Source: Saprospiraceae bacterium (GTDB lineage Bacteria; Bacteroidota; Bacteroidia; Chitinophagales; Saprospiraceae). From it: a DNA stretch of 64,000 nt. Shown here piece after piece: positions 15,211-35,173 of the stretch. Numbering within the stretch: the stretch's first letter is position 1; the number at the start of each line of letters is the position of its first letter. The position numbers and the translations under genes are program-made. Where the stretch lies: the NCBI GenBank assembly GCA_022448955.1, contig JAKVCU010000006.1, forward strand, positions 276 through 64,275, written 5' to 3'. A model generated the notes under the pieces. It was given only the letters and a program-made list of their open reading frames with translations. It had not been told where the DNA came from and searched no databases.

Positions 15211-15399
15211 ATGAAGTTGGAAGAAGGAAAAGACTATTATATAGAAGATGGCATGTACGTCTTCACGGAACATTTCTTGCGAAAGCGAGCTTATTGTTGT
15301 GAAAATGGCTGTCGCCACTGTCCTTATGGTTTCAAAAAAATCACAACTCCTTCTTCTCCTCCGGATACTCAATCCGAACGTGATGAACAGACTTCATAA
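15211..15399 (+). CDS. DUF5522-like small Cys-rich protein
   Basis: The YCCENGCRHCPYGF motif is the hallmark of this small family. The unconserved tail overlaps the convergent gene by 59 nt. Confidence 0.7.
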   Translation: MKLEEGKDYYIEDGMYVFTEHFLRKRAYCCENGCRHCPYGFKKITTPSSPPDTQSERDEQTS

Positions 15400-17431
15400 T
15401 CTGCTTGAATACTTGTTTACATTCTTCTAATTCCTGAAAGCTCATCTGAGAATCTTCCAATTGCCCTTGTGTAATTTTGCCTGCGATGATTTTATCAATA
15501 AAATCATTGAGCTCTTTTTCAGAAGGGTTATTTAAACTTTTACATGCTGCTTCGATAGAATCAGCCATCATTAAAATAGTTTCTTCTTTAGTAACAGGCC
15601 TTGGTCCAGGATATCTAAATAGATCTTCGTCAAACTCAGTTCCAGGGTTTTCTTTTATATAGGAGCGGTAAAAGAACTCTGTTCGCGTAGTTCCATGATG
15701 TGTTCTGATAAAATCAATCAATACATTAGGTAGACGATGTTTTTTGGCCATAGCCACCCCTTCTTCTACATGTCCAATAATTATCTTCGCGCTATCCAAG
15801 AATGATATCTCATCGTGAGGGTTTTTCCCTGATTGGTTTTCTATAAAAAACGCTGGTTTGGTCGTTTTACCAACATCATGATAAAGTGCCGCCACTTTTA
15901 CTAAAAGTGGGTTCGCTCCAATACGCTGAGCCGCTCCTTCCGCCAAATTTGCCACTTGTAAGGAATGTTGTAATGTACCTGGCGCTTTCAAAGCTAATTC
16001 TCTAAGCAAAGGCCTATTCATATCCGACAACTCCATCAAAGAAATCGAAGAAGTAAATCCAAAGAACCGCTCCAATAAGGGAATAAGTGGATAGGCCAAA
16101 AGCGTCAAAAATACATTGATAAATATCCAAGTGTAAACATTCCAATCAATAGTAGAAAGCTTACCTTCTTTAATTAAAGAAAGGCCGAGATAAGCCAAAC
16201 TATATGCTAAAAAAATATACAATATAGAATAAAAAAAACGCGACCAATCACGTGTATCCACATCACTTAATAATACAACAATACCAGCCAAGATGTGCAA
16301 AAAGGTAAATTCATACCCCAAAGAAGATAAAAAACTAGCAATAAGCACTACGACAATATGAGTGAATAAAGCTAAGCGCGCATCATAGAATGTTTTAATT
16401 ACAATTGGAACAATACAAAAAGGAATTAAGTAAGCACTCAATACATCCACACTTTCTACAACATATACTAAATAGCTGTAAACGACAATCCATAAAAACA
16501 CAAAAAGTAATTTCCAAAAACTAGCATATATTTCCCTGGCATACAACTGTAAATACATTAAATAAACCCCAATAATAAGAGAAGTTAGCAAAATATAGCC
16601 AAAAAGTACACCGTAAATAGATCGTTGTGCACTTACTTCTACTTGATACTGTTCCTTAAGAGAAACTAATTTCTGATAAGCTTCATCTGTTATTACATCT
16701 TCTCTTTGAATAATTAGTTCACCTTTTCGAACCATCCCTGAAGAGGTCGAAAGGTTCGCCAACTCACGACTTTTAAACTGTTGTGTTAAAGAATCACTGT
16801 AGACAATATTGGGTTGAATAACATTTTCAAGGATAGGAAATAAAAACTCTGGTTCTCTCAAACGACTGTATGGCAAAGAATCACTTAACTGCTCCTTAGC
16901 GGCTTCTTCATTCAATAGATTGCTAAGCGTTCTTTGTTCTTGAAGGTTACCTCGTTGAACTACAATGACAAAATCTCTTCCTTCGGAAGAATGCGACGAA
17001 GCCAACTGTACAATCCCTCTTTTGAATAAACGGTCTAGGAAAGCTAGACCATAATTTTGGTACTTTTTAGGATTTCGTGCTACATCAGGGAACTGATTAG
17101 CTGAATCATCTTGCTCTAATTGTGTTCGGAATTCTTCGTTAAATAGTCTTTTACTTTCCTTTTCTCTATCAAATTGTACTTCATAATGTGGTGAGAAGTT
17201 GTCAAGTACAGCTTGTCTTTCTCGTTCTATATTTTCTGCTGGTTTGCGAATCGCAAAATCGAATGGTGCATCCAAATCACTATATCGCCAGCTTTGTCCC
17301 TTTTCAAATTCATAAGTAAACTGTACATGATTAGGAAACAAAAAACTGATAAAAGCAATAACACCAATTACCATGAGAATTTTAAAAATCCCTGGCAATT
17401 GTTCAATAGCATTTCTTACTCGTGTATTCAT
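15341..17431 (-). CDS. 7TM receptor with intracellular HD/HDIG phosphohydrolase domain
   Basis: N-terminal extracellular domain, seven TM helices, then QHSLQVANL ... YHDVGK ... HHGT HD-domain motifs. 696 aa. Confidence 0.88.
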   Translation of the reverse strand: MNTRVRNAIEQLPGIFKILMVIGVIAFISFLFPNHVQFTYEFEKGQSWRYSDLDAPFDFAIRKPAENIERERQAVLDNFSPHYEVQFDREKESKRLFNEEFRTQLEQDDSANQFPDVARNPKKYQNYGLAFLDRLFKRGIVQLASSHSSEGRDFVIVVQRGNLQEQRTLSNLLNEEAAKEQLSDSLPYSRLREPEFLFPILENVIQPNIVYSDSLTQQFKSRELANLSTSSGMVRKGELIIQREDVITDEAYQKLVSLKEQYQVEVSAQRSIYGVLFGYILLTSLIIGVYLMYLQLYAREIYASFWKLLFVFLWIVVYSYLVYVVESVDVLSAYLIPFCIVPIVIKTFYDARLALFTHIVVVLIASFLSSLGYEFTFLHILAGIVVLLSDVDTRDWSRFFYSILYIFLAYSLAYLGLSLIKEGKLSTIDWNVYTWIFINVFLTLLAYPLIPLLERFFGFTSSISLMELSDMNRPLLRELALKAPGTLQHSLQVANLAEGAAQRIGANPLLVKVAALYHDVGKTTKPAFFIENQSGKNPHDEISFLDSAKIIIGHVEEGVAMAKKHRLPNVLIDFIRTHHGTTRTEFFYRSYIKENPGTEFDEDLFRYPGPRPVTKEETILMMADSIEAACKSLNNPSEKELNDFIDKIIAGKITQGQLEDSQMSFQELEECKQVFKQIMKSVHHVRIEYPEEKKEL

Positions 17432-17602
17432 ATCTCAAATATAAGGCATGAAGTATAAACTCAATGAACAAGTTCCTTTATAAATATCCAATGTTCACCA
17501 GCTTCTTTTTTACTTCATTCCAAAAAATAAAAATTTTTACGCTTCTACCCAACCCTTTTTATTAAACGCTCTGTCTATGCGAGTAAGTTTATCTAAATAA
17601 AA

Positions 17603-17812
17603 ATGAAGGTTATGAAAATTTCCAAGTCCTTACTTCAAGCCATAGCACTAGGTGCTACACTTGGTATTGCAGCGACATCTTGCAGTCTTTTAGAAGATGA
17701 GATCAAAATCACTCCTAATGCAACAGATGAAACTTGTGAAAAAGAAAATAAAGGTCGGAATGATAACAATACCCATCATTGGGATAATTGCCCGGCCTGT
17801 GGAATGGGTTAA
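17603..17812 (+). CDS. RiPP precursor peptide candidate, ChrA-like, with lipoprotein-type signal peptide
   Basis: 69 aa: MKVMKISK + hydrophobic LLQAIALGATLGIAATS-C + ...NNTHHWDNCPACGMG-stop. It lies 69 nt upstream of the DUF692 gene on the same strand. Confidence 0.7.
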   Translation: MKVMKISKSLLQAIALGATLGIAATSCSLLEDEIKITPNATDETCEKENKGRNDNNTHHWDNCPACGMG

Positions 17813-19021: not shown

Positions 19022-19039
19022 GGATTGGAATATTATGTT

Positions 19040-20068
19040 TTAATTCTTTTTTCTCTTTCTAGTTTTTGTTGTTTTTGTTCGGCTTCTGGTCACAGTATTA
19101 CCTTTCTTCTTAGCTTTCGTCGTCGTTGTCCTTTTCCTTGTAGTCGTTGTTTTTCCTCTATTTGTTTTACTAACTGTTGTAGTTTTTTTTCTAGCTCCAA
19201 CAGTGCCATTATTCTTCTTACCAACAGTCGTGCTTGTTTTGGTTACCGTTGTTCTTCTCGGTGTGCTTGTTTTGGTCACGGTTGTTCCCCGAGCTGTAGT
19301 TCTTACTCTTGTGGTAGATTTGGCTACTACAACTCTGGAAGTTGTTCTTCGAGGTGTATAAACACGATGCGCTCTTACCACTCTTGGTGTACGTACCACA
19401 TGATATCTTGGACGATAAACTACTGTTCTTGGGTAAAACACTCGCCATGGACGTGGACGCCATGGACGCCACCATCTAGGATAAACACCCCATCCAAATG
19501 GGGAAACCCAAACTCGATATCCTGGACGGTAAATAAAACGTACACTTGGCCACAACCAAACATTCACCACTACTCTCCTAAATTCTAAATCTGCACTTGG
19601 TCCACCATTTCCACCACTTGCCCCTTCATCAAATGGTTCAACGAAGTAGTCTTCACCATATAGGGTCTCATCTCCTATAATTTGCAAGACCGCTTGTTCA
19701 TCACCTGTTTTTTCTATGGCTATTACAGCAATATCTTGCGATTCACTTTTACTAAAAGGTACTTGCAGTGCAATAGCATGCAAATTACCTTCCATGTTAT
19801 CTACAACTCTTACGTAATCAATCTCTCCATCTTCGTTTAGATCAAGATTATTGATATTATTACCTTCTCTATTTAATGCCTCTTCAAAGGCTTCTAATGA
19901 GGATGCCTGTTTAAATAGAGTCAAAGCCCCTTCTAAGCAAAAATTGTCTCCTAACAAACCAGTACTATCTTTAACAATATCTTGTCCTTGTGCAACTGCA
20001 TTTTGAACAGAAAAAATAGAGGCTAATAAAATCAATGCATTCAACAACAACTTTTGTTTCATATTCAA
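19040..20068 (-). CDS. secreted protein with EF-hand-like loop and extremely basic W/R/P-rich then T/K/R-rich tail
   Basis: Signal peptide (cleavage near AVAQG), DLNEDGEIDYVR loop, then WPSVRFIYRPGYRVWVSPFGWGVYPRWWRPWRPRPWRVFYPR, then about 130 aa made almost only of T, R, K, V, S. The antisense ORF 19025-19588 is a mirror artefact. Confidence 0.7.
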   Translation of the reverse strand: MNMKQKLLLNALILLASIFSVQNAVAQGQDIVKDSTGLLGDNFCLEGALTLFKQASSLEAFEEALNREGNNINNLDLNEDGEIDYVRVVDNMEGNLHAIALQVPFSKSESQDIAVIAIEKTGDEQAVLQIIGDETLYGEDYFVEPFDEGASGGNGGPSADLEFRRVVVNVWLWPSVRFIYRPGYRVWVSPFGWGVYPRWWRPWRPRPWRVFYPRTVVYRPRYHVVRTPRVVRAHRVYTPRRTTSRVVVAKSTTRVRTTARGTTVTKTSTPRRTTVTKTSTTVGKKNNGTVGARKKTTTVSKTNRGKTTTTRKRTTTTKAKKKGNTVTRSRTKTTKTRKRKKN

Positions 20069-20300: not shown

Positions 20301-21722
20301 ATGACTAGACAGAGTAGGCTTATTCTGTGCATTGGTGTGCTTATGCACTTCAGTTATTTCCTAGATGCTCAATCCTTCTACTTTGGAGCAGACCTTTCCT
20401 ATATCAATGAAATGGAGGATTGTGGAGTTATCTATAAAGAAAACCAATCTCCAAAGGATCCTTTCCAAATTTTTGCTGATCATAATTGTAACTTAGTCCG
20501 TTTGAGACTCTGGCATACGCCCGCTTGGTACGATGATTTGAACAGCGGAGAGCGCTATTCTGATTTCACTGACGTGAAAAGGAGTATCGCAAGAGCCAAA
20601 GAGCAAGGGATGGAAGTCTTACTTGATTTCCACCTATCAGATAATTGGGCAGATCCAGGCAAGCAAATCGTTCCAGCTGCTTGGCTAGATGTAGTCAATG
20701 ATTTGCCTAAATTAAAAGATTCCTTATACGCTTATATCACCTCTACTCTTCTAGCATTGCATCAAGAGGATCTCCTTCCAGAAATGGTGCAAATTGGAAA
20801 CGAAACTAATAAAGGAATTTTACTTTCTCCAGAAGATAATACCAACTCAGGAATCGACTGGAACCGCAATAGCCAGTTATTCAATAGAGCTATTCAAGCA
20901 ATAGAAGTTGTTGAACTTATAACGCAGAAAGATATCAAGATCGCCATTCATGTTGCAGGCCCCGATGCAGGAGACTGGTTAATCAATGGGTTTATTGAAA
21001 ATGGAGTAACCGATTTTGAGGTCATTGGAATTTCCTACTATTGGGCATGGCACCAACCTACTACTATTGAACAAACTGGTCAAATTATAGGGGACTTACG
21101 TACTTCTTTGCCAGATAAAGAGCTTATCATATTTGAAACTGGATATATCTGGACTACAGAATTTAACGATAATGCCAATAATATAATCAATGCTACTCAT
21201 CCTGATTATTCCCCCCCAAGCCCACAAGCACAAAAACAATGGTTAATAGATCTTACCACTGAGGTGATAGAACACGGAGGAAGTGGTGTCATCTATTGGG
21301 AACCAGCATGGGTATCTTCTAGTTGTTGGACCCAATGGGGGCAGGGGTCTCACCAAGAACATGCTACCTTCTTTGATTTTGACAATAATTTAATCGAAGA
21401 TGGAGGTATTTCATGGATGGAAGAAAGTTATCCAACCTCAATCAACACCATTCTCAAAATAGAATCCGTAAGTATATTTCTCAACCAAAGTGCTCAACAG
21501 CTTATCATCAAAGATCCTAAGATGGAAATAGATACTTCAAGTATACTTCAAATTAATAACCTAAACGGACAGACTCTATTTTCTTCATCGATTAACTCAT
21601 TAAATAAATCTGGAAACGAATATCGAATTCGGTGGCCCGAACTGCCAACTGCTATTTATGTAGTAAGCATTTGGAGTCAAAAAAAGGAAGTCTACAGCAA
21701 AAAGATTAACTATATCAAATAA
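20301..21722 (+). CDS. GH53 endo-beta-1,4-galactanase with T9SS C-terminal sorting domain
   Basis: FGADLSYINEMEDCG ... NLVRLRLWHTP ... VQIGNE ... ISYYWAWH match GH53. The last ~80 aa (LNGQTLF...AIYVVSIW...) look like a type A T9SS CTD. Confidence 0.85.
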   Translation: MTRQSRLILCIGVLMHFSYFLDAQSFYFGADLSYINEMEDCGVIYKENQSPKDPFQIFADHNCNLVRLRLWHTPAWYDDLNSGERYSDFTDVKRSIARAKEQGMEVLLDFHLSDNWADPGKQIVPAAWLDVVNDLPKLKDSLYAYITSTLLALHQEDLLPEMVQIGNETNKGILLSPEDNTNSGIDWNRNSQLFNRAIQAIEVVELITQKDIKIAIHVAGPDAGDWLINGFIENGVTDFEVIGISYYWAWHQPTTIEQTGQIIGDLRTSLPDKELIIFETGYIWTTEFNDNANNIINATHPDYSPPSPQAQKQWLIDLTTEVIEHGGSGVIYWEPAWVSSSCWTQWGQGSHQEHATFFDFDNNLIEDGGISWMEESYPTSINTILKIESVSIFLNQSAQQLIIKDPKMEIDTSSILQINNLNGQTLFSSSINSLNKSGNEYRIRWPELPTAIYVVSIWSQKKEVYSKKINYIK

Positions 21723-21792
21723 ACAATTTTTAAGGAAAGCCATTGCTTTCCGGCGTATCAACTTTAAAAAATGAAAAAATATTCTTGCTAGT

Positions 21793-24741
21793 ATGAAACG
21801 ATTGAATACATTTTTATTCTCCATGCTCTTAGCTTTGGCACCGACCTTTTTGCTTGGCCAGCGAGCCATTACAGGTACGGTTACAGATGCAGACACTAAA
21901 GAGCCATTAATTGGAGCAAACATATTAATTCAAGGTACAACCATAGGTACCATTACTGATTTCGATGGCAATTTTTCTCTTGATGTTCCTGAAGGAACAA
22001 CTGCACTTTTAATTAGCTATACTGGATATGCAGACATCGTTTATCCGCTTGGCGCAGAAAATGTGCTGAAGGTTGAATTAACTGCTGGTGAGCTACTAGA
22101 TGAAGTAGTCATCATCGGTTATGGTACAGTAAAAAAAGAAGATGCTACAGGTGCTATTCAAACCATCAATACTAAAGACTTTAATAAAGGAGCAATCAAT
22201 ACTCCTCAGGAGTTATTGGTCGGTAAAGTGGCTGGAGTTCAAATCACGCAAGGGGCTGCACCAGGTGATGGTGCTGCTATTCGTATTCGTGGAGGTTCTT
22301 CTCTTGGTGCCTCTAACGACCCCCTAATCGTTATTGATGGAATACCCATTGATAATGGAGGGATATCAGGTGCTAGAAACCCATTAAATGCGATTAATCC
22401 TAATGATATCGCGTCCTTTAATATTCTAAAAGATGCGTCTGCGACAGCTATTTATGGTTCTAGAGCCTCAAATGGAGTCATCATTATTACCACTAAGAAA
22501 GGGAAAACAGGCAAAGGTGTAAAAGTAGATTATGCAGGTAATGTATCTATCAGTGAAAATGTTAGATTCTTAGATGTATTAAATGCGGATGAATACAGAT
22601 CATTAGTCGCCGAACAATTCCCAGATTCATTTGAACCTGATTCGTTATTAGGTAATGCTAATACTAATTGGCAAGATCAAATTTATCAAACAGCTATTGG
22701 ACAAGACCACAATCTTTCTTTCTCTGGAGGAATTAGTGACTTTTTACCATACCGTGTATCTTTAGGTTATACCAATCGTAATGGTGTACTTAAAACAGAT
22801 GAATTCCAAAGAACAACGCTTGGTGTCAACTTAAATCCTTCATTTTTAGACAACCGCCTTCAAATAAATTTGGGTATTAAAGGAAGTTTTTCACAAAACC
22901 AATTTGCGAACCGTGGCGCCATAGGATCTGCAGCTCGCTTCGACCCTACTCAAGAAGTGTTGGATCCAGGCAATGCCTTCGGTGGCTATTTCACCTGGAC
23001 ACAAGAGGGTACTGGAAATCCAAACAGTTTAGCCGCTCCAAACCCTTTAGCTTTGTTAGAGTTACGGGATGACCAGTCGGAAGTAGCACGTTATATCATG
23101 AATGCTTCTATTGATTATCGTTTTGCATTCTTACCAGAATTAAGGGCTAATCTTAGCTTAGGGTATGATTATGCTAGAGGTGAAGGAACAGTCGTTGTTC
23201 CTAATTTTGCTTCATTTGCATTCGATGCAGTAAATGGTGGTGGTCAGAATTCAAGATACGATCAAGAAAAGACCAACAAGTTGTTAGACTTTTACCTAAA
23301 TTATGTAAAAGAGTTTGGCAATCAGAAAATTGATATCATGGCAGGGTATTCTTGGCAAAGATTCTTCTTTGACAACTATTCCTTCAATACCAATGCTGCA
23401 GGGACACCCACTCCTGACATCACTACCGAGTTTTTTGATTCTGGCGAGCTGTTTTTATTATCTCTTTTTGGCCGTTTGAATTATACCTTGGATGATAAGT
23501 ACTTATTTACTTTCACCCTTCGCCGTGATGGTTCATCTCGTTTCTCTCCTGATACCCGTTGGGGTCTCTTTCCAGCAGCAGCTTTCGCTTGGAAAATTCT
23601 TGAGAATCAAAATGGTATCTTGAATAACTTAAAACTCAGGCTAGGATATGGTGTAACTGGTCAGCAAGATATTGGCGGATATTACCTATACCTTCCTACA
23701 TATACGATAGGCCAACCTACCGCAGCTTATCCTTTCGGAAATGATTTTGTACAAACACTACGCCCTGAAGAGTATGATGCAGATATCAAATGGGAAGAAA
23801 CCACAACCTACAATCTCGGTTTAGATTTCAGTTTACTGAATGATCGAATTTCTGGCTCTGTTGAATATTATATAAGACAAACAAACGATCTGCTATTAGG
23901 TATTCCTATTCCAGCGGGTACCAACCTCTCTAACTTCCTCATTACAAATATTGGAGATTTAGAAAATAGAGGGGTAGAGCTTACGCTAAATGCAATTCCA
24001 GTACAAGTTGAAAACTATAGATGGGAAGTAGGCTTTAACTTTACAAGAAATGAAAACAAAATCACTAAACTATTAGCTACGGATGATCCAGAATTCCAAG
24101 GAAACCGCGTTGGAGGTATATCAGGTGGTTTAGGTAATACGGTTCAAATTAATAGTGTAGGTTTCCCCGCTTCTAGTTACTTCTTGTACGAGCAGGTTTA
24201 TGACGAAACAGGTACACCAATTGAAGGATTATATGTTGATCGTAATGGTGATGGCGTTGTGAATCCAGACGATTTATATCGTACCGAAAATCCAGCACCA
24301 GATTACTTTTTAGGAATAAACTCTACTTTTGATTATAAAGGATTAAGCTTAAGTTTCTCTGCTAGAGCTAATCTAGGTAATCATATCTACAACAATGTAT
24401 GGTCTGATTTCGGAACCTATGCTAGTTTATATAACTCCGCTGGTTTCTGGTCAAATGTACACGCTAGTGTAAATGATATCCGTTTCCAAAACCCACAATA
24501 CTTAAGTGACCACTTCTTGCAAGATGGTTCTTTTATAAGATTTGATTATATCACTCTTGCCTATCAATTTGGTTCATTATTCAAAAAATCAATCAAAAAC
24601 TTAGGCATCTCAGCAACGGTTCAGAATCCATTTGTGATTACAAACTATGAAGGTATTGATCCTGAGATTTTTGGAGGTATTGATAATAACATTTATCCAA
24701 GAGCAAGAACTTTTGTATTTGGATTAAACGCTAGTTTCTAA
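21793..24741 (+). CDS. SusC/RagA family TonB-linked outer membrane protein
   Basis: CarboxypepD_reg-like N-terminus (ITGTVTDADTKEPLIGANILIQGT), TonB plug (ASATAIYGSRASNGVIIITTKKG), 982 aa, C-terminal F. Confidence 0.95.
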   Translation: MKRLNTFLFSMLLALAPTFLLGQRAITGTVTDADTKEPLIGANILIQGTTIGTITDFDGNFSLDVPEGTTALLISYTGYADIVYPLGAENVLKVELTAGELLDEVVIIGYGTVKKEDATGAIQTINTKDFNKGAINTPQELLVGKVAGVQITQGAAPGDGAAIRIRGGSSLGASNDPLIVIDGIPIDNGGISGARNPLNAINPNDIASFNILKDASATAIYGSRASNGVIIITTKKGKTGKGVKVDYAGNVSISENVRFLDVLNADEYRSLVAEQFPDSFEPDSLLGNANTNWQDQIYQTAIGQDHNLSFSGGISDFLPYRVSLGYTNRNGVLKTDEFQRTTLGVNLNPSFLDNRLQINLGIKGSFSQNQFANRGAIGSAARFDPTQEVLDPGNAFGGYFTWTQEGTGNPNSLAAPNPLALLELRDDQSEVARYIMNASIDYRFAFLPELRANLSLGYDYARGEGTVVVPNFASFAFDAVNGGGQNSRYDQEKTNKLLDFYLNYVKEFGNQKIDIMAGYSWQRFFFDNYSFNTNAAGTPTPDITTEFFDSGELFLLSLFGRLNYTLDDKYLFTFTLRRDGSSRFSPDTRWGLFPAAAFAWKILENQNGILNNLKLRLGYGVTGQQDIGGYYLYLPTYTIGQPTAAYPFGNDFVQTLRPEEYDADIKWEETTTYNLGLDFSLLNDRISGSVEYYIRQTNDLLLGIPIPAGTNLSNFLITNIGDLENRGVELTLNAIPVQVENYRWEVGFNFTRNENKITKLLATDDPEFQGNRVGGISGGLGNTVQINSVGFPASSYFLYEQVYDETGTPIEGLYVDRNGDGVVNPDDLYRTENPAPDYFLGINSTFDYKGLSLSFSARANLGNHIYNNVWSDFGTYASLYNSAGFWSNVHASVNDIRFQNPQYLSDHFLQDGSFIRFDYITLAYQFGSLFKKSIKNLGISATVQNPFVITNYEGIDPEIFGGIDNNIYPRARTFVFGLNASF

Positions 24742-24771
24742 AATTAAGATGCAAAGAAAAATCTAAATAAA

Positions 24772-26982
24772 ATGAATATCAAATTATATTTCCGCTCCCT
24801 CTTTATCCTACTGGGCATGACTGCAAGCTTTACTGCTTGTTTCAATGATTTGGATACGACCCCCATCGATCCAGATTCTGTGACAGCGGCGAATGTTTAT
24901 GATGATCCTGCCGCTTACCGTCAGGTTTTAGCAAAATTGTATGCTGGTCTGGCTGTCTCTGGCCAACAAGGCCCTTCAGGCCAAGCTGATATTGAAGGTA
25001 TTGATGAGGGCTTTGGCCAATATCTTAGAGGTTTGTGGTATCACCAACAATTACCTACGGACGAGGCGGTTATCGGTTGGAATGACCAAACGATTAAGGA
25101 TTTTCACGAACAAGATTGGGATGCTAATGATCCTTTTATTTATGCATTTTACAGTCGTATCTTCTACCAAATTTCTGTTTGTAACGAATTTTTACGCGAA
25201 ACAACAGAAGATAAATTGAATGAAAGAGGTGTTGACGATGCATTAAAAACAGAAATCCAAGGATTTCGTGCAGAAGCACGTTTCTTACGTGCACTGAGTT
25301 ATTACCACGCTTTGGATCATTTCCGCAATGTTCCTTTTGTAACTGAAGAAGATCGAGTAGGTTCTTTCTTCCCTGAGCAAATTCAGGCACCTCAGTTATT
25401 TGATTTCTTAATCACAGAACTTACAGAAATCGAAGGACAGCTACCTACACCAAAGGCTAATGAATATGGTCGTGCAGACCAAGCTGCTATTTGGATGCTT
25501 TTAGCAAAGCTTTACTTGAATGCTGAGGTATACGCTGGTAAAAATGAATATGCGAATTGTTTGACACAAATCGAAAAAGTAATCAATGCTGGTTATGAGT
25601 TAGATGAAGAATATGAACACCTATTTATGGCAGATAATGACCTTTCAAACGAAGTGATTTTTAGTATTCCTTTCGATGGTATCAATACCAAAACTTGGGG
25701 AGGTACAACATTCATCCTTCGTGCCGGCATTGGTGGATCAATGAATGATAATGCACCTACAGATTATGGTGTAGCTGATGGTTGGGGTGGAACACGTGTT
25801 ACCTCTTCATTGGTAGGTAAATACCCAGCTGTGGCAAGTGAACAAGGAGGAGGTCTAATTGTGCTACCTAATTCAGGGGAAGATTATACGCAAGCATATG
25901 TACCAGGATCATTTGTACAATGGAACCCTGCCAATGCACCTGCATTGACTTCACCAAATGAAGACGATGTTTTTGAGGGATATATCTATTTTGAAGAAGC
26001 AGATCAAAAGTTCATCATCACGAGACAACGTTCATTTGCCAACAACTTTGGAGATGATGGCCAAGATGGTACTTTAGAACCAAACGGTGACCAAATTGAT
26101 GTGGCTGAGCCAGGTGTTTATTACCTAAATGCAGATTTAACCAACCTAACTTATACGCTTGAAAAAGTAGAATTCGGAATCATCGGTTCTGCAACGGCTA
26201 ATGGTTGGGATAGTGATATTGACATGGTTTACAGCCCAGAAGATACTGCTTGGGTTTACGAAGGCCTATTAAGCGCTGGTGAGATGAAATTCCGTGCAAA
26301 TGATGATTGGGCAATCAATTATGGAGACGACGGCGCAGATGCTATCTTAGAATTAGATGGTGGAAACATTATTGTTGAATCCACTGGAAATTACCGTGTC
26401 AAATTCTTCACAGCAAGTGCAGACTATACTTACTCTTTAGAATTGACTAGTTCTGATAAAAGAGCCAACTTTTATACGGAAGGCCAAACTCTAGAAATTG
26501 CAGATATTGCACAATTCACGGAAGGATATGCTTCGCAAAAATATAAGAATGTAACTAGAGATGGCTCTAGAGGCAGTGATCTAACACATGTTGATATTGA
26601 CTTCCCGATGTGGCGCTTAGCAGATGCCTATTTAATGTATGCAGAAGCACATCTTAGAGGTGGTGGTGGTGATGCCAATACTGCTGTAGATTATATCAAT
26701 ATGGTGAGGTTAAGAGCTTATGGCGACGAATCTGGACAAATTACAACTAACGATCTAAATCTAGATTTCATTCTGGATGAAAGAGCAAGAGAACTATACT
26801 GGGAAGCACATCGTCGTCAAGATTTAGTTCGTTTTGGTCAATTCTCTGATGGATCATACGTATGGCCTTGGAAAGGTGGAGTAGTAGACGGTGCAGCTGT
26901 AGAGGAACACTTTGATGTGTACCCTATTCCATCTGCTGATATTGGAGCTAATCCAAGTCTAACTCAAAACACTGGTTATTAA
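24772..26982 (+). CDS. SusD/RagB family lipoprotein with internal insertion of two SusE/F-like domains
   Basis: Lipobox FTAC. The SusD N-terminal half and C-terminal end (FPMWRLADAYLMYAEA, LDERARELYWEAHRRQDLVRFG, YPIP) are interrupted by residues ~375-559, which contain GIIGSATANGWDSD...KFRANDDWAINYG. 736 aa. Confidence 0.9.
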   Translation: MNIKLYFRSLFILLGMTASFTACFNDLDTTPIDPDSVTAANVYDDPAAYRQVLAKLYAGLAVSGQQGPSGQADIEGIDEGFGQYLRGLWYHQQLPTDEAVIGWNDQTIKDFHEQDWDANDPFIYAFYSRIFYQISVCNEFLRETTEDKLNERGVDDALKTEIQGFRAEARFLRALSYYHALDHFRNVPFVTEEDRVGSFFPEQIQAPQLFDFLITELTEIEGQLPTPKANEYGRADQAAIWMLLAKLYLNAEVYAGKNEYANCLTQIEKVINAGYELDEEYEHLFMADNDLSNEVIFSIPFDGINTKTWGGTTFILRAGIGGSMNDNAPTDYGVADGWGGTRVTSSLVGKYPAVASEQGGGLIVLPNSGEDYTQAYVPGSFVQWNPANAPALTSPNEDDVFEGYIYFEEADQKFIITRQRSFANNFGDDGQDGTLEPNGDQIDVAEPGVYYLNADLTNLTYTLEKVEFGIIGSATANGWDSDIDMVYSPEDTAWVYEGLLSAGEMKFRANDDWAINYGDDGADAILELDGGNIIVESTGNYRVKFFTASADYTYSLELTSSDKRANFYTEGQTLEIADIAQFTEGYASQKYKNVTRDGSRGSDLTHVDIDFPMWRLADAYLMYAEAHLRGGGGDANTAVDYINMVRLRAYGDESGQITTNDLNLDFILDERARELYWEAHRRQDLVRFGQFSDGSYVWPWKGGVVDGAAVEEHFDVYPIPSADIGANPSLTQNTGY

Positions 26983-27009
26983 TCCTAATTTGAAAAAAGA
27001 AAATGTGTC

Positions 27010-28059
27010 ATGTTAAATAAAAATACTTTATCACTTCTTGTTGCTCTAAGCATGCTATTTTTTGCGTGTGAAGAAAAAACATTTGACCCTGTAGTCGAAT
27101 TAGTGACCGCCCCAGAGCTTACAGCTCCTACTACAGGTACTGGATTTGTCTTAGCAGAAGACGCAGTAGAACAAAATCTAACCACATTTACTTGGACTGC
27201 GGCAGATTTTGGCTATTCTGCAGGTATTACTTATCGAATCGAATTTGATATCGTAGGAAATAATTTCGCTGAAGCAATCACACTAGGTTCTTCGAACGAT
27301 CTAAGCTTTACGAATCTTTCTATTGGAAAGATGAATAATATTCTTTTAGCAAAAGGCTTACCATTTGGATTTGACAATGAACTAGAAGTTAGGGTTTGCG
27401 CCAGCGTAAGTACCCAGGTAGAAACCATGTGCTCTGAACCAATCACCATTACCGTTAACCCATTTGCTGCAGAAGTAGAATATCCCTTTTTAACTGTTCC
27501 TGGTGACTATCAAGGTTGGAACCCTGCTGATGAATCGAGGGCAATATTTTCAAGAAGAAGTGACGATATTTATACCGGTTTTATCTACTTCCAGATTGAT
27601 AATGCTGTTTACAAATTTGTTCAGGGCCTTAGCTGGGATGTCAACTGGGGGGATATAGAACCAGATGGAGTACTAGACCCACAAGGGCTTGGAAATGATA
27701 TTATGATTCCAGACGGTGCAGGTATGTATTTACTTACTTGCGACCTCAATACGTTAACCCATGCTGCCCAGAAAACCAATTGGGGCCTACTTGGCGATGC
27801 CACGCCCAACGGCTGGGATACCGATGTAGATTTCGAATGGGATACTGAAAGGGAAGTGCTAAGTGTTACCTTAGACCTAAATCCTGGATCAATTAAATTC
27901 CGTGCAAATGATACGGATGATATCAGCTTTGGCGATGACTTCACAAATGGAACACTGGAGTTTGATGGTGACAATATTCCAATTACAGAAGCAGGAAACT
28001 ACACCATCGATCTCATTTTGATGACAGCAGATTATTCTTACACCATTACGAAAAATTAA
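27010..28059 (+). CDS. SusE-like outer membrane lipoprotein (SusE N-domain + two SusE/F-like beta-sandwich domains)
   Basis: Lipobox FFAC and TTFTWTAADFGYSAGITYRIEFD (SusE N-domain style), followed by PGDYQGWNP... and GLLGDATPNGWDTD...KFRANDTDDISFG. Confidence 0.85.
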   Translation: MLNKNTLSLLVALSMLFFACEEKTFDPVVELVTAPELTAPTTGTGFVLAEDAVEQNLTTFTWTAADFGYSAGITYRIEFDIVGNNFAEAITLGSSNDLSFTNLSIGKMNNILLAKGLPFGFDNELEVRVCASVSTQVETMCSEPITITVNPFAAEVEYPFLTVPGDYQGWNPADESRAIFSRRSDDIYTGFIYFQIDNAVYKFVQGLSWDVNWGDIEPDGVLDPQGLGNDIMIPDGAGMYLLTCDLNTLTHAAQKTNWGLLGDATPNGWDTDVDFEWDTEREVLSVTLDLNPGSIKFRANDTDDISFGDDFTNGTLEFDGDNIPITEAGNYTIDLILMTADYSYTITKN

Positions 28060-28165
28060 ATACTAGATATCAACTAGGCTATATACATGGGGTAAATCCT
28101 TGATTTCACCCTAGGATACAATACATCCAAATTAATTACGATTCAACTTTTTAAAAATTACTATT

Positions 28166-29935
28166 ATGTTAAAAAAATTACTCTATCTATTTACAATTAC
28201 TTTATTAACCGCAGCTATTGCTCAAGCTCAATCTGTGGGTATCATCGGTTCTGCTACTCCTGGAGGATGGGATGAGGATACAGATTTGACACAAGATGCT
28301 GATAACCCTGATATATGGACAATCTCTGGACTAGCCCTTAGTACGGGTGAAACTAAATTCCGTCAAGATGATGACTGGACAGTCAACTGGGGTGCTACCT
28401 CATTCCCTAATGGTACAGGTGAGCAGGATGGTCCTAACATCCCTACTGCTGGTGGTACCTATGATATTACTTTTAATTCGGCTACAGCTGAATATACTTT
28501 CACAGAAACTTCTCCCACTTATGGGTCTATAGGTCTCATCGGTACAGGTACTTCTATCGGAAACTTCGATGAAGATGTCGATATGACTGCAATCGACACT
28601 ATTCCATGGGTTTGGACATTAGAAACAACATTAGTTGCTGGTGATGTAAAATTCCGTGCTGATGATGATTGGACCAACAACTGGGGAGCAATCGATTGGC
28701 CATCAGGTGTTGGCACACCAGGTGGTGATAATATTCCAAGTGTACCAGGTGATTATCTAGTAACATTCAACTCTGCTACGGGTGAATACTCTTTCGAAAC
28801 TTTAGTTCCACTTTACAATACGATCGGTGTTATCGGTGATGCTACACCAGGTGGATGGGATGCTGATACAGATCTAGAACAAAATCCTAATAATCCTTCT
28901 TTATGGTCTGCTAATATTACTTTCACTGATGGTGAAGCAAAATTCCGTGCTGAAGATGACTGGGCAGTCAACTGGGGTGCAGAAGATTTCCCTATGGGTA
29001 CGGCTGTTTTAGAAGGTCCAAATATCCCTGTTGTTGCTGGCGAATACAATGTTCAGTTCAACTCCGCTACAGGTGAATACAACTTTGCCCCACCAATTTC
29101 AATCTTCGAAACAGTAGGAATTATTGGTGATGGTACTGGTCTTGGTTGGGATGAAGATATCGATATGTATGTTGATCCAGCACAGCCAGATCAATGGACA
29201 GTTCAGTTGCACCTAACAACAGGTGAAGTAAAATTCCGCGCAAATAATGCTTGGGATGTCAACTGGGGTGACGATGGTTTCCCTACAGGTACAGCTACTG
29301 AAGGTGGACCAAATATTCCTGTTTTTGAAGGTGATTGGGAAATTACTTTTAATGCAACAACTGGAGTCTATTCTTTCACTCCTGTATCAATCGGTATCAT
29401 CGGTACAGCTACTGCAGGTGGTTGGGATTCTGATACAGATATGGCTGCTAGTAATACAGCGGGAAGTGTTTGGTCGCTTGATATCGATTTGATGGATGGT
29501 GAAGCAAAATTCCGTCAAAATGATGATTGGGCAATCAACTGGGGTGAAGCTACTTTCCCTACTGGTGCAGGTACACAAGATGGTCCTAATATCCCTGTAA
29601 CAGCAGGATCGTACAATGTTAGCTTAAATACAGCTACTGGTGATTATGCATTTAATGGTTCAAATAATACTTTAAATCTATTGGACGGAAGTGCAATCCA
29701 GGTATTTCCTAATCCAACTCGCGAATTACTAAATATCAATATTGAAGCAGTTGAATTACAGAACGATGTAACTGTTCGCGTTCTTAACTTAGAAGGACAA
29801 GTAATCAGCGTTCAGCAATTTAATCAGTTAGAATCATTAAACATTGATGTTTCTAACTATGCTGCAGGTGTATATATTCTTCAGTTATCTAATAACGAAT
29901 ACATACTTGGTAAGCGTTTTTCAGTTATTAAATAA
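28166..29935 (+). CDS. secreted protein with five tandem SusE/F-like domains and T9SS C-terminal sorting domain
   Basis: Signal peptide, five ~92-98-aa repeats each with IIG.ATPGGWD...W...GE.KFR..DDW..NWG...GPNIP...Y...FN.ATGEY.F, then VFPNPT...GVYILQL (T9SS CTD). Confidence 0.88.
   Translation: MLKKLLYLFTITLLTAAIAQAQSVGIIGSATPGGWDEDTDLTQDADNPDIWTISGLALSTGETKFRQDDDWTVNWGATSFPNGTGEQDGPNIPTAGGTYDITFNSATAEYTFTETSPTYGSIGLIGTGTSIGNFDEDVDMTAIDTIPWVWTLETTLVAGDVKFRADDDWTNNWGAIDWPSGVGTPGGDNIPSVPGDYLVTFNSATGEYSFETLVPLYNTIGVIGDATPGGWDADTDLEQNPNNPSLWSANITFTDGEAKFRAEDDWAVNWGAEDFPMGTAVLEGPNIPVVAGEYNVQFNSATGEYNFAPPISIFETVGIIGDGTGLGWDEDIDMYVDPAQPDQWTVQLHLTTGEVKFRANNAWDVNWGDDGFPTGTATEGGPNIPVFEGDWEITFNATTGVYSFTPVSIGIIGTATAGGWDSDTDMAASNTAGSVWSLDIDLMDGEAKFRQNDDWAINWGEATFPTGAGTQDGPNIPVTAGSYNVSLNTATGDYAFNGSNNTLNLLDGSAIQVFPNPTRELLNINIEAVELQNDVTVRVLNLEGQVISVQQFNQLESLNIDVSNYAAGVYILQLSNNEYILGKRFSVIK
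28232..29653 (+). repeat. five tandem coding repeats, period about 276-294 nt
   Basis: Repeat units start at residues S23, S121, T219, T316 and S408 of the 28166 ORF. Confidence 0.85.
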
Positions 29936-30712: not shown

Positions 30713-31957
30713 ATGGACAGACCTGTTCAACAATCATTAAAAACGAAACGCAACTTAAAATGGATATTTTATAGTATTCTATGTGTTGGAGCTCTTTATG
30801 CAAGTTGGCAATTTTTAGGTAATCAATTAAAAACAAGCATTGATCCTAAAGATTTTATTACTGCTAAAGTGGAAAAAGGTAATATTGAAAGTACCATTTC
30901 AGCCGCAGGCGAAGTCATCCCTATTTACGAACAAGTATTGAGTAGTCCTATTAAAGCTACTATCCAAGAAGTATTAAAGCCGATTGGCACGAAGGTGCGA
31001 AAAGGTGAAGCTATATTGGTGTTGGACAAAAGCGAATCTTTGTTAGAGTTTGAAAAACTTACAGATCAATTAGAATTAAGAAAAAATGAAATCACCCGAC
31101 TGAAATTAAATCTCAAAAAAGAGTTATTCGATCTAGAAATTTCAGATTCTATCAAAGCACTGAATGTCCAACGCCTAACTGCCGATAGAGATAATACCAA
31201 ATATCTTTTAGATATCGGTGGCGCTACACAAGAACAAATGGATGAGGCCGAATTGCAATTAAAAATTGCCTTACTAGAGAAAAAACAATTAGACCACAGC
31301 CTGAAAACTAAGAAACAATCTACCGAAACAGAAATCTTCGAAAAAGACTTACAAGCCAAGATTCAAGGCCATGCTATTACAGAATTGGAGCAAAAACTCC
31401 AAAAAGCAGACATCAAAGCACAAAGATCAGGTGTACTCACTTGGGTAAATGACCGAATAGGATTGCCCGTAAATCCAGGAGAAACATTAGCTAGATTAGC
31501 TGACCTAGGATTTTTTAAAGTAATGGGGAGTATATCCGATATTTATGCGGATAAAATCAAAATCGGACAGCGTGCTATTGTAACTGTAAATGACCAGCCT
31601 TTAAGTGGAACGATCAATAATATCCGCCCCACAGTAGAAAACAATATCATTACCTTCGAAGTACAACTCGATCAATCTAATCATGAAGCTTTACGTCCCA
31701 ATATGAAAGTGGAAGTATATATCATCTTGGCTAGTAAATCGGAAACACTTAGAATTGCTAATGGTCCTGCTTTTAATGGTAAAGCAAAACAAAAGTTATT
31801 CCTACTTCAAGATGGAAGAGCTATTCAAAAAGAAGTCCAAATGGGACTCAGCAGCTTCGAATATGTAGAAGTACTTAGCGAACTACGTCTCGGAGATGAG
31901 ATCATCATCTCTGACATGAAACAATACGAACACTTATCTGAGATCACAATAAAATAA
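30713..31957 (+). CDS. HlyD-family efflux periplasmic adaptor
   Basis: N-terminal TM helix, long coiled-coil section, and barrel-sandwich/beta-barrel C-terminal motifs. 414 aa. Confidence 0.85.
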   Translation: MDRPVQQSLKTKRNLKWIFYSILCVGALYASWQFLGNQLKTSIDPKDFITAKVEKGNIESTISAAGEVIPIYEQVLSSPIKATIQEVLKPIGTKVRKGEAILVLDKSESLLEFEKLTDQLELRKNEITRLKLNLKKELFDLEISDSIKALNVQRLTADRDNTKYLLDIGGATQEQMDEAELQLKIALLEKKQLDHSLKTKKQSTETEIFEKDLQAKIQGHAITELEQKLQKADIKAQRSGVLTWVNDRIGLPVNPGETLARLADLGFFKVMGSISDIYADKIKIGQRAIVTVNDQPLSGTINNIRPTVENNIITFEVQLDQSNHEALRPNMKVEVYIILASKSETLRIANGPAFNGKAKQKLFLLQDGRAIQKEVQMGLSSFEYVEVLSELRLGDEIIISDMKQYEHLSEITIK

Positions 31958-31962
31958 AAGAT

Positions 31963-32628
31963 ATGATTAAGTTATCCCAAATTGAAAAGGTTTATACCAC
32001 CAAAACAATCGAAACCTTAGCCCTCAATAATATCAACTTGGATATTATGAAAGGAGAATTTGTATCTATCATGGGGCCTTCGGGCTGTGGTAAAAGTACC
32101 CTCTTAAACATTATGGGTTTATTAGATGATCCTTCTACGGGCCAAGTAGAAATTAATGGAGAGTCATTTGCTAGATTTTCAGACAAACAGCTAGCAAAAT
32201 TTAGAAATAATACCATTGGCTTCATCTTTCAAAGTTATCACCTGATTAATGATTTATCGGTAATTGATAATGTAGAGCTGCCCTTGCTTTACAGAAATGT
32301 ATCTAGTAGCGAAAGAAGAAAATTGGCTTCAGAAGCATTAGAAAAAGTAGGTCTAGCCAATAGAATGAAACACTTCCCAAGTCAGTTATCAGGTGGTCAA
32401 AAGCAAAGAGTGGCGATTGCAAGAGCAATCGTTGGACGGCCACAAATTATCTTGGCCGATGAGCCTACTGGAAACCTTGATAGTGTGATGGGTAATGAAG
32501 TGATGGACATTTTGCTTAAGCTGAATGAACAAGAGGATACCACTATTGTGATGGTTACGCACGATGAAAGCATGGCACAGAAAACGCACCGATTAATTCG
32601 CTTATTTGACGGAAGTCAAGTAAACTAA
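31963..32628 (+). CDS. ABC transporter ATP-binding protein (MacB/LolD type)
   Basis: Walker A GPSGCGKST, Q-loop, signature LSGGQKQRVAIARA, Walker B ILADEPTGNLD. Confidence 0.93.
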   Translation: MIKLSQIEKVYTTKTIETLALNNINLDIMKGEFVSIMGPSGCGKSTLLNIMGLLDDPSTGQVEINGESFARFSDKQLAKFRNNTIGFIFQSYHLINDLSVIDNVELPLLYRNVSSSERRKLASEALEKVGLANRMKHFPSQLSGGQKQRVAIARAIVGRPQIILADEPTGNLDSVMGNEVMDILLKLNEQEDTTIVMVTHDESMAQKTHRLIRLFDGSQVN

Positions 32629-32662
32629 ACCCTTTTCCCGATCTTAAATAATCCGACGTATC

Positions 32663-33907
32663 ATGCTTATAAATTATATTAAAGTTGCTCTAGCTGTACT
32701 GGGTAGAAATCGTTTTTTCACCTTTGTCAGTTTGTTTGGTATTAGCCTCACATTAGCAGTCTTGATTATTGTTTCTGCCTTCTTAAATCAATTTCTTCAT
32801 TCTTCCTATCCCAATTTTAAAAAGGATAGAATTTTAATGATCCAAAACGTAGGTGTGCAAAATGAAAATCAAAGGTCTAGCAGTGCTGCCAGCTTTTACC
32901 TCTACAAAAATCATATCAAAAAATTAAAAACACCTGAAATCATAGGGGTCATATCCTATGGCCAACAAAGAAATGTCTTTATTGGCAATCAAAAACTACA
33001 ATTATACGAGCGCCTATCAGATGCTAATTTCTTTGAAATCATGGATTTCGATTTTATCGAAGGCAAAGCCTATGATAAAGGTCATATCGAAAGAAATGAG
33101 TTGGTTGCCGTTATCACGAAATCCTTAGCAGAAGATTACTTTGGAACGGCTAAGGGAAATATTGGAAAGCCTATTCAGATTGAACAAACCAGCTATAAAG
33201 TCATTGGCGTAGTAAGAGATGCACCTAGCTATAATTCACTCGCCTATGCAGATATCCTACTGCCTTATAGCGTTTCAAAAAGAAACTTAACTAAACACGA
33301 AATTACTGGTCCCTTTATTCCGCTGCTACTAGCAAAAAATAAAGAACACAAAAAAGCAATCAAAGCAGAGGCCAAAGCAATAGTTAATCAAGTTGCTTTT
33401 CCTCCTGATGCTTGGTATGAAGAAATGTCTTTGGATGTCGGAACCAATACCGAATTCTTGGCTAAAGCATTAGTAAATCCTAGAGGAGAAATGAATGAAT
33501 CCGAACTGAATAAGTTATATGCCATCATTTTTGGAGCTATGATATTATTTATGCTTTTACCTACACTCAATTTAATTAATCTAAATTCTGGTAGAATAGT
33601 GGAGAGAGCATCAGAAATAGGTGTGCGTAAGGCATTTGGAGCTACCTCTTCTACCCTAGCCTTCCAATTTGTTATTGAAAATATCATCATTACTTTCATC
33701 GGTGGTGTAATCGGCTTATTGCTTGCTTTTGGGGTACTAAAAACAATTGAAGCCTCTAGATACATACCCCATGGGGAATTTCCTATCGACTTTAGTGTAT
33801 TTGCTTATGGCATATTCTTGTGTTTCTTATTTGGTATTCTTTCTGGGGTTGTCCCTGCATTAAGAATGTCCAAAATGTCAATTGTGTCAGCTATTAAAAA
33901 AGCCTAA
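32663..33907 (+). CDS. ABC transporter permease, FtsX/MacB-type
   Basis: N-terminal TM helix, a large periplasmic domain, and a C-terminal FtsX-like 3-TM bundle (GVRKAFGAT). Confidence 0.85.
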   Translation: MLINYIKVALAVLGRNRFFTFVSLFGISLTLAVLIIVSAFLNQFLHSSYPNFKKDRILMIQNVGVQNENQRSSSAASFYLYKNHIKKLKTPEIIGVISYGQQRNVFIGNQKLQLYERLSDANFFEIMDFDFIEGKAYDKGHIERNELVAVITKSLAEDYFGTAKGNIGKPIQIEQTSYKVIGVVRDAPSYNSLAYADILLPYSVSKRNLTKHEITGPFIPLLLAKNKEHKKAIKAEAKAIVNQVAFPPDAWYEEMSLDVGTNTEFLAKALVNPRGEMNESELNKLYAIIFGAMILFMLLPTLNLINLNSGRIVERASEIGVRKAFGATSSTLAFQFVIENIIITFIGGVIGLLLAFGVLKTIEASRYIPHGEFPIDFSVFAYGIFLCFLFGILSGVVPALRMSKMSIVSAIKKA

Positions 33908-33917
33908 AATTTCAATT

Positions 33918-35105
33918 ATGATCAAGCATATATTTTTAATGATTTGGAACCAAAAAGGAAGAAACATTGGACTTCTTTTGGAGATTTTCTTCTCCTTTAT
34001 CGTTCTATTCGCAGTTTCGACTTATATTATTTATCAATACAATATTTATCATCAAAACCTTGGCTTTAATTACGAAAATATCTGGATGCTCCAAATGGAT
34101 GCTAGAGAAAGTAATGCGAAGGAAATTGCCCAAACAAAAGATCAAATCGCACGGTATTTAAAGCAACAAACAGAAATTCAATCTTTTTCTTATTCGTCAA
34201 ATAATATGCCTTATGGCAGTTCAACAAGTATGACGGTTTTGAATCATAACGGTAAGGAAACGAATCCAGATTACTTTCAAGTTGAGCCTTCCTTTCTAGA
34301 AACCTTCCAATTGGAGCTAATGGAAGGTAGATGGCTTAAAGAGGACGATAAAGCTGCTAATGCTATACCAATTGTAATCAATAGTGAACTTAAAAAAGAA
34401 CTATTCGAAGATGAAGATGTCATTAACCTTGAACTCTTAGATGATGAAGGGAACACAGAGTTTAAAATTGTGGGTATACTTGATCAATTCAAATTCCAAG
34501 GAGAATTTTCTCCAGCCAGAGCAGGTTTTTTTAGATTAATGCCAGATTCCTTAAATTACCCTGGCTCAATGATGCTGAAAATTCAGCCCAATGCAGGTGC
34601 TGCCTTTGAAGCAAAAATGATGAAACAGCTCAATAAAATGGCGGGTAATTGGTCTTTCAATATCTCCTACATGGAAGAATCAAGAAAGAGCCGATTAAGA
34701 GAAACACAGGTCCCTATAATCGTCTTAATGACTATTTGTGGTTTTTTACTTTTTAATGTTGCCCTTGGATTGTTTGGTATTCTTTGGAGTAATATCAATA
34801 AAAGAAAAGCAGAAATTGGTATCCGCAGAGCGATGGGTGCTACAAAAAACGGACTCAATTGGCAATTCATTGGCGAGATGATGATGATTTGTACCTTCAG
34901 CTTAGTACTCAGCACCTTCTTTGCCATCCAACTACCATTGCTAAAAGTGTTTAGTGGACCACCATTCTTCATCAGTGTATGGATCTATTTTCTAGCAATT
35001 TTTGTATCCATCTTAATAATTTATGGGATTGTCTTGATTTGTTCTTATTTTCCAAGCAGACAAGCAGCGCAGCTGCATCCAGCAGTTGCATTACATGAGG
35101 AGTAG
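33918..35105 (+). CDS. ABC transporter permease, FtsX/MacB-type (second copy)
   Basis: Same architecture (GIRRAMGAT). The ATG at 33918 is preferred over 33882, which would overlap the previous gene. Confidence 0.85.
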   Translation: MIKHIFLMIWNQKGRNIGLLLEIFFSFIVLFAVSTYIIYQYNIYHQNLGFNYENIWMLQMDARESNAKEIAQTKDQIARYLKQQTEIQSFSYSSNNMPYGSSTSMTVLNHNGKETNPDYFQVEPSFLETFQLELMEGRWLKEDDKAANAIPIVINSELKKELFEDEDVINLELLDDEGNTEFKIVGILDQFKFQGEFSPARAGFFRLMPDSLNYPGSMMLKIQPNAGAAFEAKMMKQLNKMAGNWSFNISYMEESRKSRLRETQVPIIVLMTICGFLLFNVALGLFGILWSNINKRKAEIGIRRAMGATKNGLNWQFIGEMMMICTFSLVLSTFFAIQLPLLKVFSGPPFFISVWIYFLAIFVSILIIYGIVLICSYFPSRQAAQLHPAVALHEE

Positions 35106-35110
35106 GCTTT

Positions 35111-35169
35111 GTTTTTGGTTGCTGGTTCTTAGTTTGCAAACCACCAACTAAAATCCAACAACTAAAAAC
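35111..35169. repeat. long imperfect AT-rich inverted repeat between permease and response regulator genes
   Basis: gtttttggttgctggttcttagtttg pairs with the complement of ccaccaactaaaatccaacaactaaaaac (21 of 26 positions) around a 4-nt loop. Confidence 0.5.
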
Positions 35170-35173
35170 TATT

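Follow-up and report, generated by a model that had tools for sequence, protein, structure and literature searches.

A DybA/DybH-type RiPP cassette with a predicted lipoprotein precursor in a Saprospiraceae bacterium

A lipid-anchored peptide made by an MNIO enzyme was described by Chen, Zhu, Zhang, Berthold and van der Donk for the DybA/DybH system of Dyadobacter crusticola (bioRxiv, 1 November 2025, PMC12636315; PNAS, 30 March 2026, PMC13056109). Acting without a partner protein, DybH converts the CPACGMG tail of its substrate into a macrocycle and a hydantoin with a free thiol, with a mass change of -4 Da, and the modification chemistry of CPACGMG-type tails has been established for DybA, ChsA, and HymA (PMC13056109). 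The extra conserved Cys of the DybA type belongs to the lipobox of an SPII signal peptide, and mature DybA produced in E. coli carried a diacylglycerol and an N-acyl chain on this residue, the triacylated N-terminal Cys being seen by MS/MS (PMC13056109). Outer-membrane vesicles of E. coli contained the lipopeptide, the name DAG-RiPPs was given to such products, and possible surface or vesicle signals were noted behind the Cys, namely, a KDD of moderate conservation and runs of Asp (PMC13056109).

Two other groups of MNIO systems are relevant. Chryseobasin of Chryseobacterium, the product of ChrA/ChrH (Ayikpoe et al., ACS Cent Sci 2023, PMC10214503), involves the same MNIO subfamily and CPACGMG motif and also contains a macrocycle and hydantoin. 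ChrA differs from the DybA type in its greater length, in having an SPI signal and no lipobox Cys, and in the S-methylation of its product (+10 Da); further conserved genes, such as chrI, belong to its cluster (PMC13056109). SPII signals in MNIO-modified peptides are also known from the lipidated oxazolin NedA (NedA/NedBC), which was shown to be triacylated (PMC13056109), and from approximately 16% of Buf2 bufferins in an earlier survey, where they are predicted only (PMC12452194).

Here, a gene pair of this kind is described in a 64,000-nucleotide stretch of Saprospiraceae DNA, the whole of which is referred to as the window. The pair very probably represents a two-gene cassette of the DybA/DybH type, a DAG-RiPP system whose peptide is modified and then lipidated. 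An earlier sequence-only reading of the locus, in which a lipidated precursor was already proposed, was aware of no described lipid-anchored MNIO product; this statement is out of date since the publication of the preprint and the article cited above. The features of the window are listed in Table 1.

Table 1. Coordinates of the cassette, its sequence elements and the surrounding genes in the window
Feature	Position	Strand	Evidence or remark
DUF5522 gene, 62 aa, Cys-rich	15211-15399	+	E = 1.6e-19
7TM receptor with HD hydrolase domain	15341-17431	-	convergent with DUF5522 gene
DybA-type chryseobasin-related RiPP precursor gene	17603-17812	+	ORF, translation, NCBIfam NF050125 match
Predicted SPII-type lipoprotein signal peptide	17612-17680	+	PROSITE PS00013-type rule, homologue layout
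Lipobox A24-T25-S26-C27 (69-aa numbering)	17672-17683	+	sequence
Lipobox +1 Cys, codon TGC, C27 (69-aa form) or C24 (66-aa form)	17681-17683	+	48/48 precursors
Acidic run E31-D32-E33, +5 to +7 of the mature peptide	17693-17701	+	sequence
Extra Cys C45 in the core peptide, within DETCE	17735-17737	+	sequence
C-terminal CPACGMG, predicted MNIO substrate site	17789-17809	+	sequence
MNIO maturase, ChrH/DybH subfamily, 379 aa	17882-19021	+	Pfam, NCBIfam
13-bp inverted repeat spanning the MNIO stop codon	19000-19031	.	terminator-like site, minus strand; consensus match only
342-aa ORF convergent with the MNIO gene	19040-20068	-	ORF
Polysaccharide-utilisation locus	20301-29935	+	GH53, SusC/D/E/F-type genes
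SusD-like protein, unusually long, 736 aa	24772-26982	+	Pfam
MacAB-type operon	30713-37839	+	HlyD-type adaptor, ABC ATPase, two MacB/FtsX-type permeases

The precursor gene and its lipoprotein signal

The precursor ORF was translated exactly into the peptide quoted in the sequence-only reading, MKVMKISKSLLQAIALGATLGIAATSCSLLEDEIKITPNATDETCEKENKGRNDNNTHHWDNCPACGMG, with the stop codon (17810-17812) directly after the CPACGMG motif. The translation confirmed the peptide features described there, with the exception of the n-region given as MKVMKISK, which is probably the shorter MKISK. Translation could begin at the ATG at 17603, giving 69 aa, or at that at 17612, giving 66 aa. The second ATG is probably the start, because homologues begin with MK[ILV], the profile alignment begins at residue 4, and the peptide is recorded at NCBI in the 66-aa form. 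This public record of the exact peptide, MCH2081131.1, is annotated as a hypothetical protein of a Saprospiraceae bacterium MAG. MK[ILV] opens all 46 ATG-initiated homologues from other genomes. With the start at 17612 the n-region retains two Lys and stays basic, and the lipoprotein-type reading is unchanged. The 47th precursor from another genome, that of Dyadobacter sp. CY312 (L037), has IKIPKS in the same register and no ATG at the usual MKI position; its frame, IKIPKSILQAVAVALAVTTVTACAVTE...NCPGCGMG, lies at about locus positions 2840-2989 and may have a non-canonical start or a start-codon mutation.

The peptide matched NCBIfam NF050125 ("chryseobasin-related MNIO class RiPP peptide") with 59.3 bits against a cut-off of 40 (E = 4.7e-16), with residues 4-69 aligned on positions 1-56 of 56, i.e., the full profile. 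By this match the precursor is assigned to the DybA-type chryseobasin-related lipoprotein RiPP precursors. It is taken as a genuine gene and no chance ORF, because the NF050125 match is joined by conserved synteny with the MNIO gene and by agreement with the lipobox rule described below.

Scanning one genome per species yielded 45 loci with full-length relatives of the window MNIO (53-59% identity) in Dyadobacter, Fluviicola, Saprospiraceae, Chitinophagales, Ferruginibacter, Ginsengibacter, and Solirubrum. Directly upstream of the MNIO gene, 42 of the 45 loci contained one or two small ORFs ending with CPxCG(M/L)G. The precursor set analyzed, 48 peptides with the window peptide included (47 distinct), was gathered by scanning the DNA upstream of the MNIO homologues for a terminal CPxCGxG, the motif being the selection criterion; within it, 47 tails end with GMG and one with GLG. 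When the 69-aa peptide was used in a word-indexed protein search, only 5 clusters were obtained, the method being too insensitive for a peptide this short.

Several loci departed from the common arrangement. Two tandem, clearly different precursors per single MNIO gene were present in four Fluviicola/Flavobacteriales MAGs (L008, L012, L014, and L033) and in one Saprospiraceae MAG (L031), approximately 200-450 nt upstream of the MNIO gene (locus position 3001), for example ...TTSCEKQD...HCEPCPACGMG paired with ...SSSCQQNE...YKNCPACGMG; the window has a single precursor. In three Chitinophagales/Bacteroidota MAGs (L007, L011, and L015), whose MNIOs are 57-59% identical to the window enzyme, no ORF ending with CPxCGxG was found in the whole loci (4.4-7.1 kb), and the region upstream of the enzyme gene holds no open frame of the precursor kind; the precursor may be encoded elsewhere or carry a different motif. 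A metagenomic relative 91% identical to the window peptide (P0001) ends with CTACGLGSS in place of CPACGMG, the Pro being replaced and two residues added after the motif; natural variation, decay of the copy or misassembly of its 947-nt contig could explain this ending.

The predicted signal peptide consists of the n-region MKISK, the h-region SLLQAIALGATLGIA and a lipobox with A-T-S at -3 to -1. Lipoprotein signals were scored with a PROSITE PS00013-type rule, the pattern and positional rules of which were coded for the test. The window precursor passed, with A-T-S-C at 21-24 and the Cys at 24 of the 66-aa form. Of the 587 Met-starts in the window that open frames of 40 aa or more, only nine passed, namely, the two starts of the peptide, five plausible lipoproteins (a SusD-like, a SusE-like and a solute-binding protein and two ORFs without assignment) and two that are evidently false positives. 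Residue -3 is Ala, not Leu, which fits the relaxed rule and the usage of the family, in which positions -3 to -1 are mostly TTS, ATA or ITA and the ATS of the window is typical.

In all 48 precursors a hydrophobic stretch comes after a basic MK-x-x-K/S n-region, the lipobox Cys lies at position 23-27 in 48 of 48, and the rule was passed by 46 of them. The lipobox Cys and the hydrophobic N-terminus, whose conservation among homologues had been proposed as a check of the lipoprotein reading, were both universal in this set, and the sequence-level tests failed to refute it. The Cys is the predicted site of S-diacylglyceryl and N-acyl attachment and the predicted mature N-terminus, by analogy with DybA. 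Cleavage by signal peptidase I, e.g., after A-A or T-S, would instead release a soluble, lipid-free periplasmic or secreted product like ChrA of Chryseobacterium. The small residues A, A, T and S before the Cys would also suit such a site, and ChrA and MelA1, from the same enzyme subfamily, have SPI signals (PMC13056109). An SPI site needs no Cys, however, and a Cys occupies the lipobox position in every precursor across several Bacteroidota orders; the homologous DybA was moreover shown to be triacylated (PMC13056109), and cleavage by signal peptidase I is considered very unlikely.

A total of 30 precursors contain three Cys, 14 contain four, and four contain six. The extra Cys of the window peptide, C45, is kept in all close relatives (86-99% identity), and across the wider family of 48 precursors extra Cys residues have no fixed position. 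At least one Asp or Glu occurs within +2 to +7 in 47 of the 48 precursors, and at least two in 17.

The MNIO enzyme and the genomic context of the cassette

The MNIO gene starts 69 nt downstream of the precursor gene. Its product is identical to MCH2081132.1, annotated as a DUF692 domain-containing protein, and has no signal peptide. This accession, from a Saprospiraceae bacterium, is already included in a supplementary file of the preprint, in a file that does not contain the precursor peptide (PMC12636315); the identity rests on the accession and the exact protein match, the machine-read sequence beside the accession being garbled.

The TIM-barrel core (residues 52-260) matched Pfam PF05114 (MbnB_TglH_ChrH) at 2e-28, and residues 13-371 matched positions 11-361 of 363 of the NCBIfam MNIO_ChrH profile with 370.9 bits. 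This score is below the cut-off of 600 for the ChrH equivalog NF050165, and S-methylation or another outcome therefore cannot be read from the sequence; it agrees with the separate cluster formed by enzymes of other Bacteroidota genera (PMC13056109). An additional C-terminal helical domain of approximately 8 kDa, fused to the core, is the hallmark of the ChrH subfamily (PMC13056109). The ChrH profile was matched to residue 371 of the window enzyme, residues 299-370 after the barrel include invariant positions, and this conserved extension fits such a domain.

Among 41 full-length homologues, H98, H102, E147, D179, N182, H210, D230, H232, and E260 were invariant, and H65 was present in 40. On the model of MbnB and TglH, these conserved His, Glu, Asp, and Asn positions, all retained in the window enzyme, are presumed to be the iron ligands. 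The D-x-x-N, H-x-S-G-G, and D-x-H motifs could be aligned with 8hci, a DUF692 protein of solved structure.

The bufferins, which carry Sec signals and had served for comparison in the sequence-only reading, hold as an analogy, but the enzyme belongs to the ChrH/DybH subfamily and not to BufB. Assignment to the bufferins was rejected, with an MNIO_BufB score of 84.6 bits against a cut-off of 310, no Pfam match of the precursor and no partner gene. NedA and the bufferins differ from the window system by EGKCG repeats or BUF_6/12Cys precursors, by another MNIO clade with a BufC/HvfC-type partner, and by oxazolone-thioamide or thiooxazole products and copper binding, and the window showed none of the NedA or bufferin features.

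The precursor and the MNIO gene look like a two-gene operon. The inverted repeat over the MNIO stop codon, followed by a T-rich tract on the plus-strand side, is probably a bidirectional terminator at the end of this operon. A sigma-70 promoter scan gave hits no commoner than in shuffled sequence, its consensus being ill-suited to Bacteroidota, and a -7-like element, TAAGTTTA at 17584-17591, was a one-mismatch match only and is not claimed as a promoter. Recent horizontal transfer was also considered and rejected, the GC content of the cassette (0.39) being close to that of the window (0.37).

Apart from distant SusC-like matches in five Dyadobacter loci, no flanking gene of the window was conserved beside the cassette in other genomes, and the cassette is therefore regarded as self-contained. 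Bacteroidota clusters outside Chryseobacterium have likewise been reported without conserved flanking genes (PMC13056109). No gene for a ChrI/DUF2063-like partner was found among the flanking genes, which encode the 7TM-HD protein, the DUF5522 protein and an unassigned secreted protein. The last of these is the product of the ORF that runs convergently to the MNIO gene. Its N-terminus resembles a signal peptide, its middle is rich in P, R and W and its very basic tail in Thr, Lys and Arg, and it contains the EF-hand-like sequence DLNEDGEIDY; no Pfam or NCBIfam model matched it, and it is not kept next to the cassette in other genomes. A plus-strand ORF at 19025-19588 is probably its shadow. 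On the other side, the DUF5522 gene overlaps the 3' end of the 7TM-HD gene by 59 nt.

Clusters of the DAG-RiPP type often lie near SusC/D genes according to the defining paper (PMC13056109). In the window, the proximity of the cassette to SusC/D genes looks coincidental, and since the cassette flanks are not conserved, the GH53/SusCDEF genes were treated as a separate polysaccharide-utilisation locus. This locus encodes a GH53 galactanase, a SusC-like TonB-dependent receptor, and SusD-like, SusE-like and SusF/E-like proteins. The T9SS sorting-domain match of the galactanase was weak (20 bits, below the Pfam cut-off of 27), and that of the SusF/E-like protein was above the cut-off (50.8 bits). 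In the unusually long SusD-like protein, a SusF_SusE-type match (470-583) stands between SusD-like_3 and SusD_RagB matches, overlapping the start of SusD_RagB at 568, and could represent an inserted carbohydrate-binding module. Further downstream, genes for a sigma-54-dependent response regulator and for a histidine kinase come after the MacAB-type genes, and no link between this operon and the RiPP cassette was found.

Predicted maturation, lipidation and surface display

By analogy with DybA/DybH, we infer both the chemistry and the lipidation of the window product. The 66-aa precursor would be translated in the cytoplasm, where the adjacent MNIO would recognise the C-terminal CPACGMG and carry out a four-electron oxidation. 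The two Cys of the motif would thereby be linked in a thiohemiaminal macrocycle with a hydantoin ring, with a predicted net change of -4 Da. The N-terminal signal peptide would then bring the modified peptide to Sec, Lgt would add diacylglycerol to the lipobox Cys, LspA would cleave before this residue, and Lnt would N-acylate it. The expected outcome is a peptide of approximately 43 residues with a triacylated N-terminus and the macrocycle at the far end. This order of cytoplasmic modification, Sec export and lipidation had been put forward in the sequence-only reading and is supported by the sequence features of the family and by the DybA/DybH experiments (PMC13056109).

Leader peptide dependence is usual in most RiPP pathways, and the hydrophobic N-terminus might accordingly be seen as a conventional leader for enzyme recognition, with no Sec export. 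The N-terminus nevertheless has the n-h-c layout of a signal peptide, and enzymes of the ChrH/DybH subfamily need no partner protein and act on the C-terminal motif of widely differing substrates, a protein of 34 kDa among them (PMC13056109), which makes such a role extremely unlikely. Export of the modified peptide followed by lipidation remains the preferred reading.

The location of the lipopeptide is less certain. The product may reside in the outer membrane, where it might be exposed at the surface or packed into vesicles, and the acidic cluster after the Cys may act as a non-canonical determinant of sorting to the surface or to vesicles. Like surface-exposed lipoproteins of Bacteroidota that bear a lipoprotein export signal (LES), the window peptide has a negatively charged cluster closely after the lipobox Cys, but its acidic residues are at +5 to +7 and are preceded by Leu-Leu. 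The export signal of Capnocytophaga canimorsus, C-X-K-(D/E)2-X, depends critically on position (PMC5080379), and that of Bacteroides thetaiotaomicron, CS(D/E)2, has its acidic residues at +3 and +4 (PMC6222051); the C-S-L-L-E-D-E of the window matches neither. The proposal that this cluster is a surface-display signal is suggestive, given the negative charge near the Cys, but the acidic residues lie further from it than in the tested signals.

A modified and lipidated peptide could instead stay on a periplasmic face, anchored either in the inner membrane or in the outer membrane's inner leaflet, without being displayed or packed into vesicles, and this location is considered a somewhat unlikely possibility. 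It would be consistent with the position of the acidic residues after S-L-L, as the tested Bacteroidota signals need K, Q or S and then two acidic residues at about +3 to +5 (PMC5080379, PMC6222051), and the SusD-like and SusE-like lipoproteins of the window have acidic residues nearer the Cys (CFNDLD and CEEK). On the other hand, what mattered most in both export-signal studies was an overall negative charge near +1, and three acidic residues stand in a row in the window peptide. DybA made in E. coli was found in outer-membrane vesicles (PMC13056109), and the sorting rules are known from hosts other than Saprospiraceae. Surface export of the window lipopeptide is thus possible.

The Saprospiraceae locus within the DAG-RiPP family

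As in DybA/DybH, the window precursor lies directly upstream of a ChrH-like MNIO, here with a putative C-terminal helical domain, and without a partner-protein gene, and, as in DybA, it starts with MKISK, has its lipobox Cys at approximately 23-24 and ends with CPACGMG. The MNIO is 53-57% identical to its Dyadobacter homologues. In contrast to DybA, in which approximately 27 residues follow the Cys, the core of the window peptide has approximately 43, with the extra Cys45 (DETCE), which has no DybA counterpart, and with His-His-Trp just before the motif. The residues after the lipobox Cys are S-L-L-E-D-E, compared to the A-D-M-D or K-D-D type, and the host is a Saprospiraceae MAG.

The window peptide and its close relatives form a sub-group of Saprospiraceae-type precursors together with those of loci L002, L018, L031, L036, and L045, in which the cores are longer, with one or three additional Cys, and stretches rich in His adjoin the motif. 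DybH-type enzymes leave the thiohemiaminal thiol free (PMC13056109), and the Saprospiraceae-type product might differ from lipo-DybA, for example, by a disulfide between Cys45 and this thiol, giving a bicyclic lipopeptide, or by a membrane-held Cys/His metal site; such a difference is regarded as unlikely.

The phenomenon is already described, and the locus is an ordinary member of a published family with a curated model. With the family, its chemistry, the lipidation, the model and the listing of the enzyme already available, the discovery value is small, and this marine-type Saprospiraceae member with an extra Cys provides at most one more sequence for comparative work. Reading the sequence alone nonetheless recovered a biosynthetic idea that has been established by experiment, namely, that RiPPs can use the general lipoprotein pathway.
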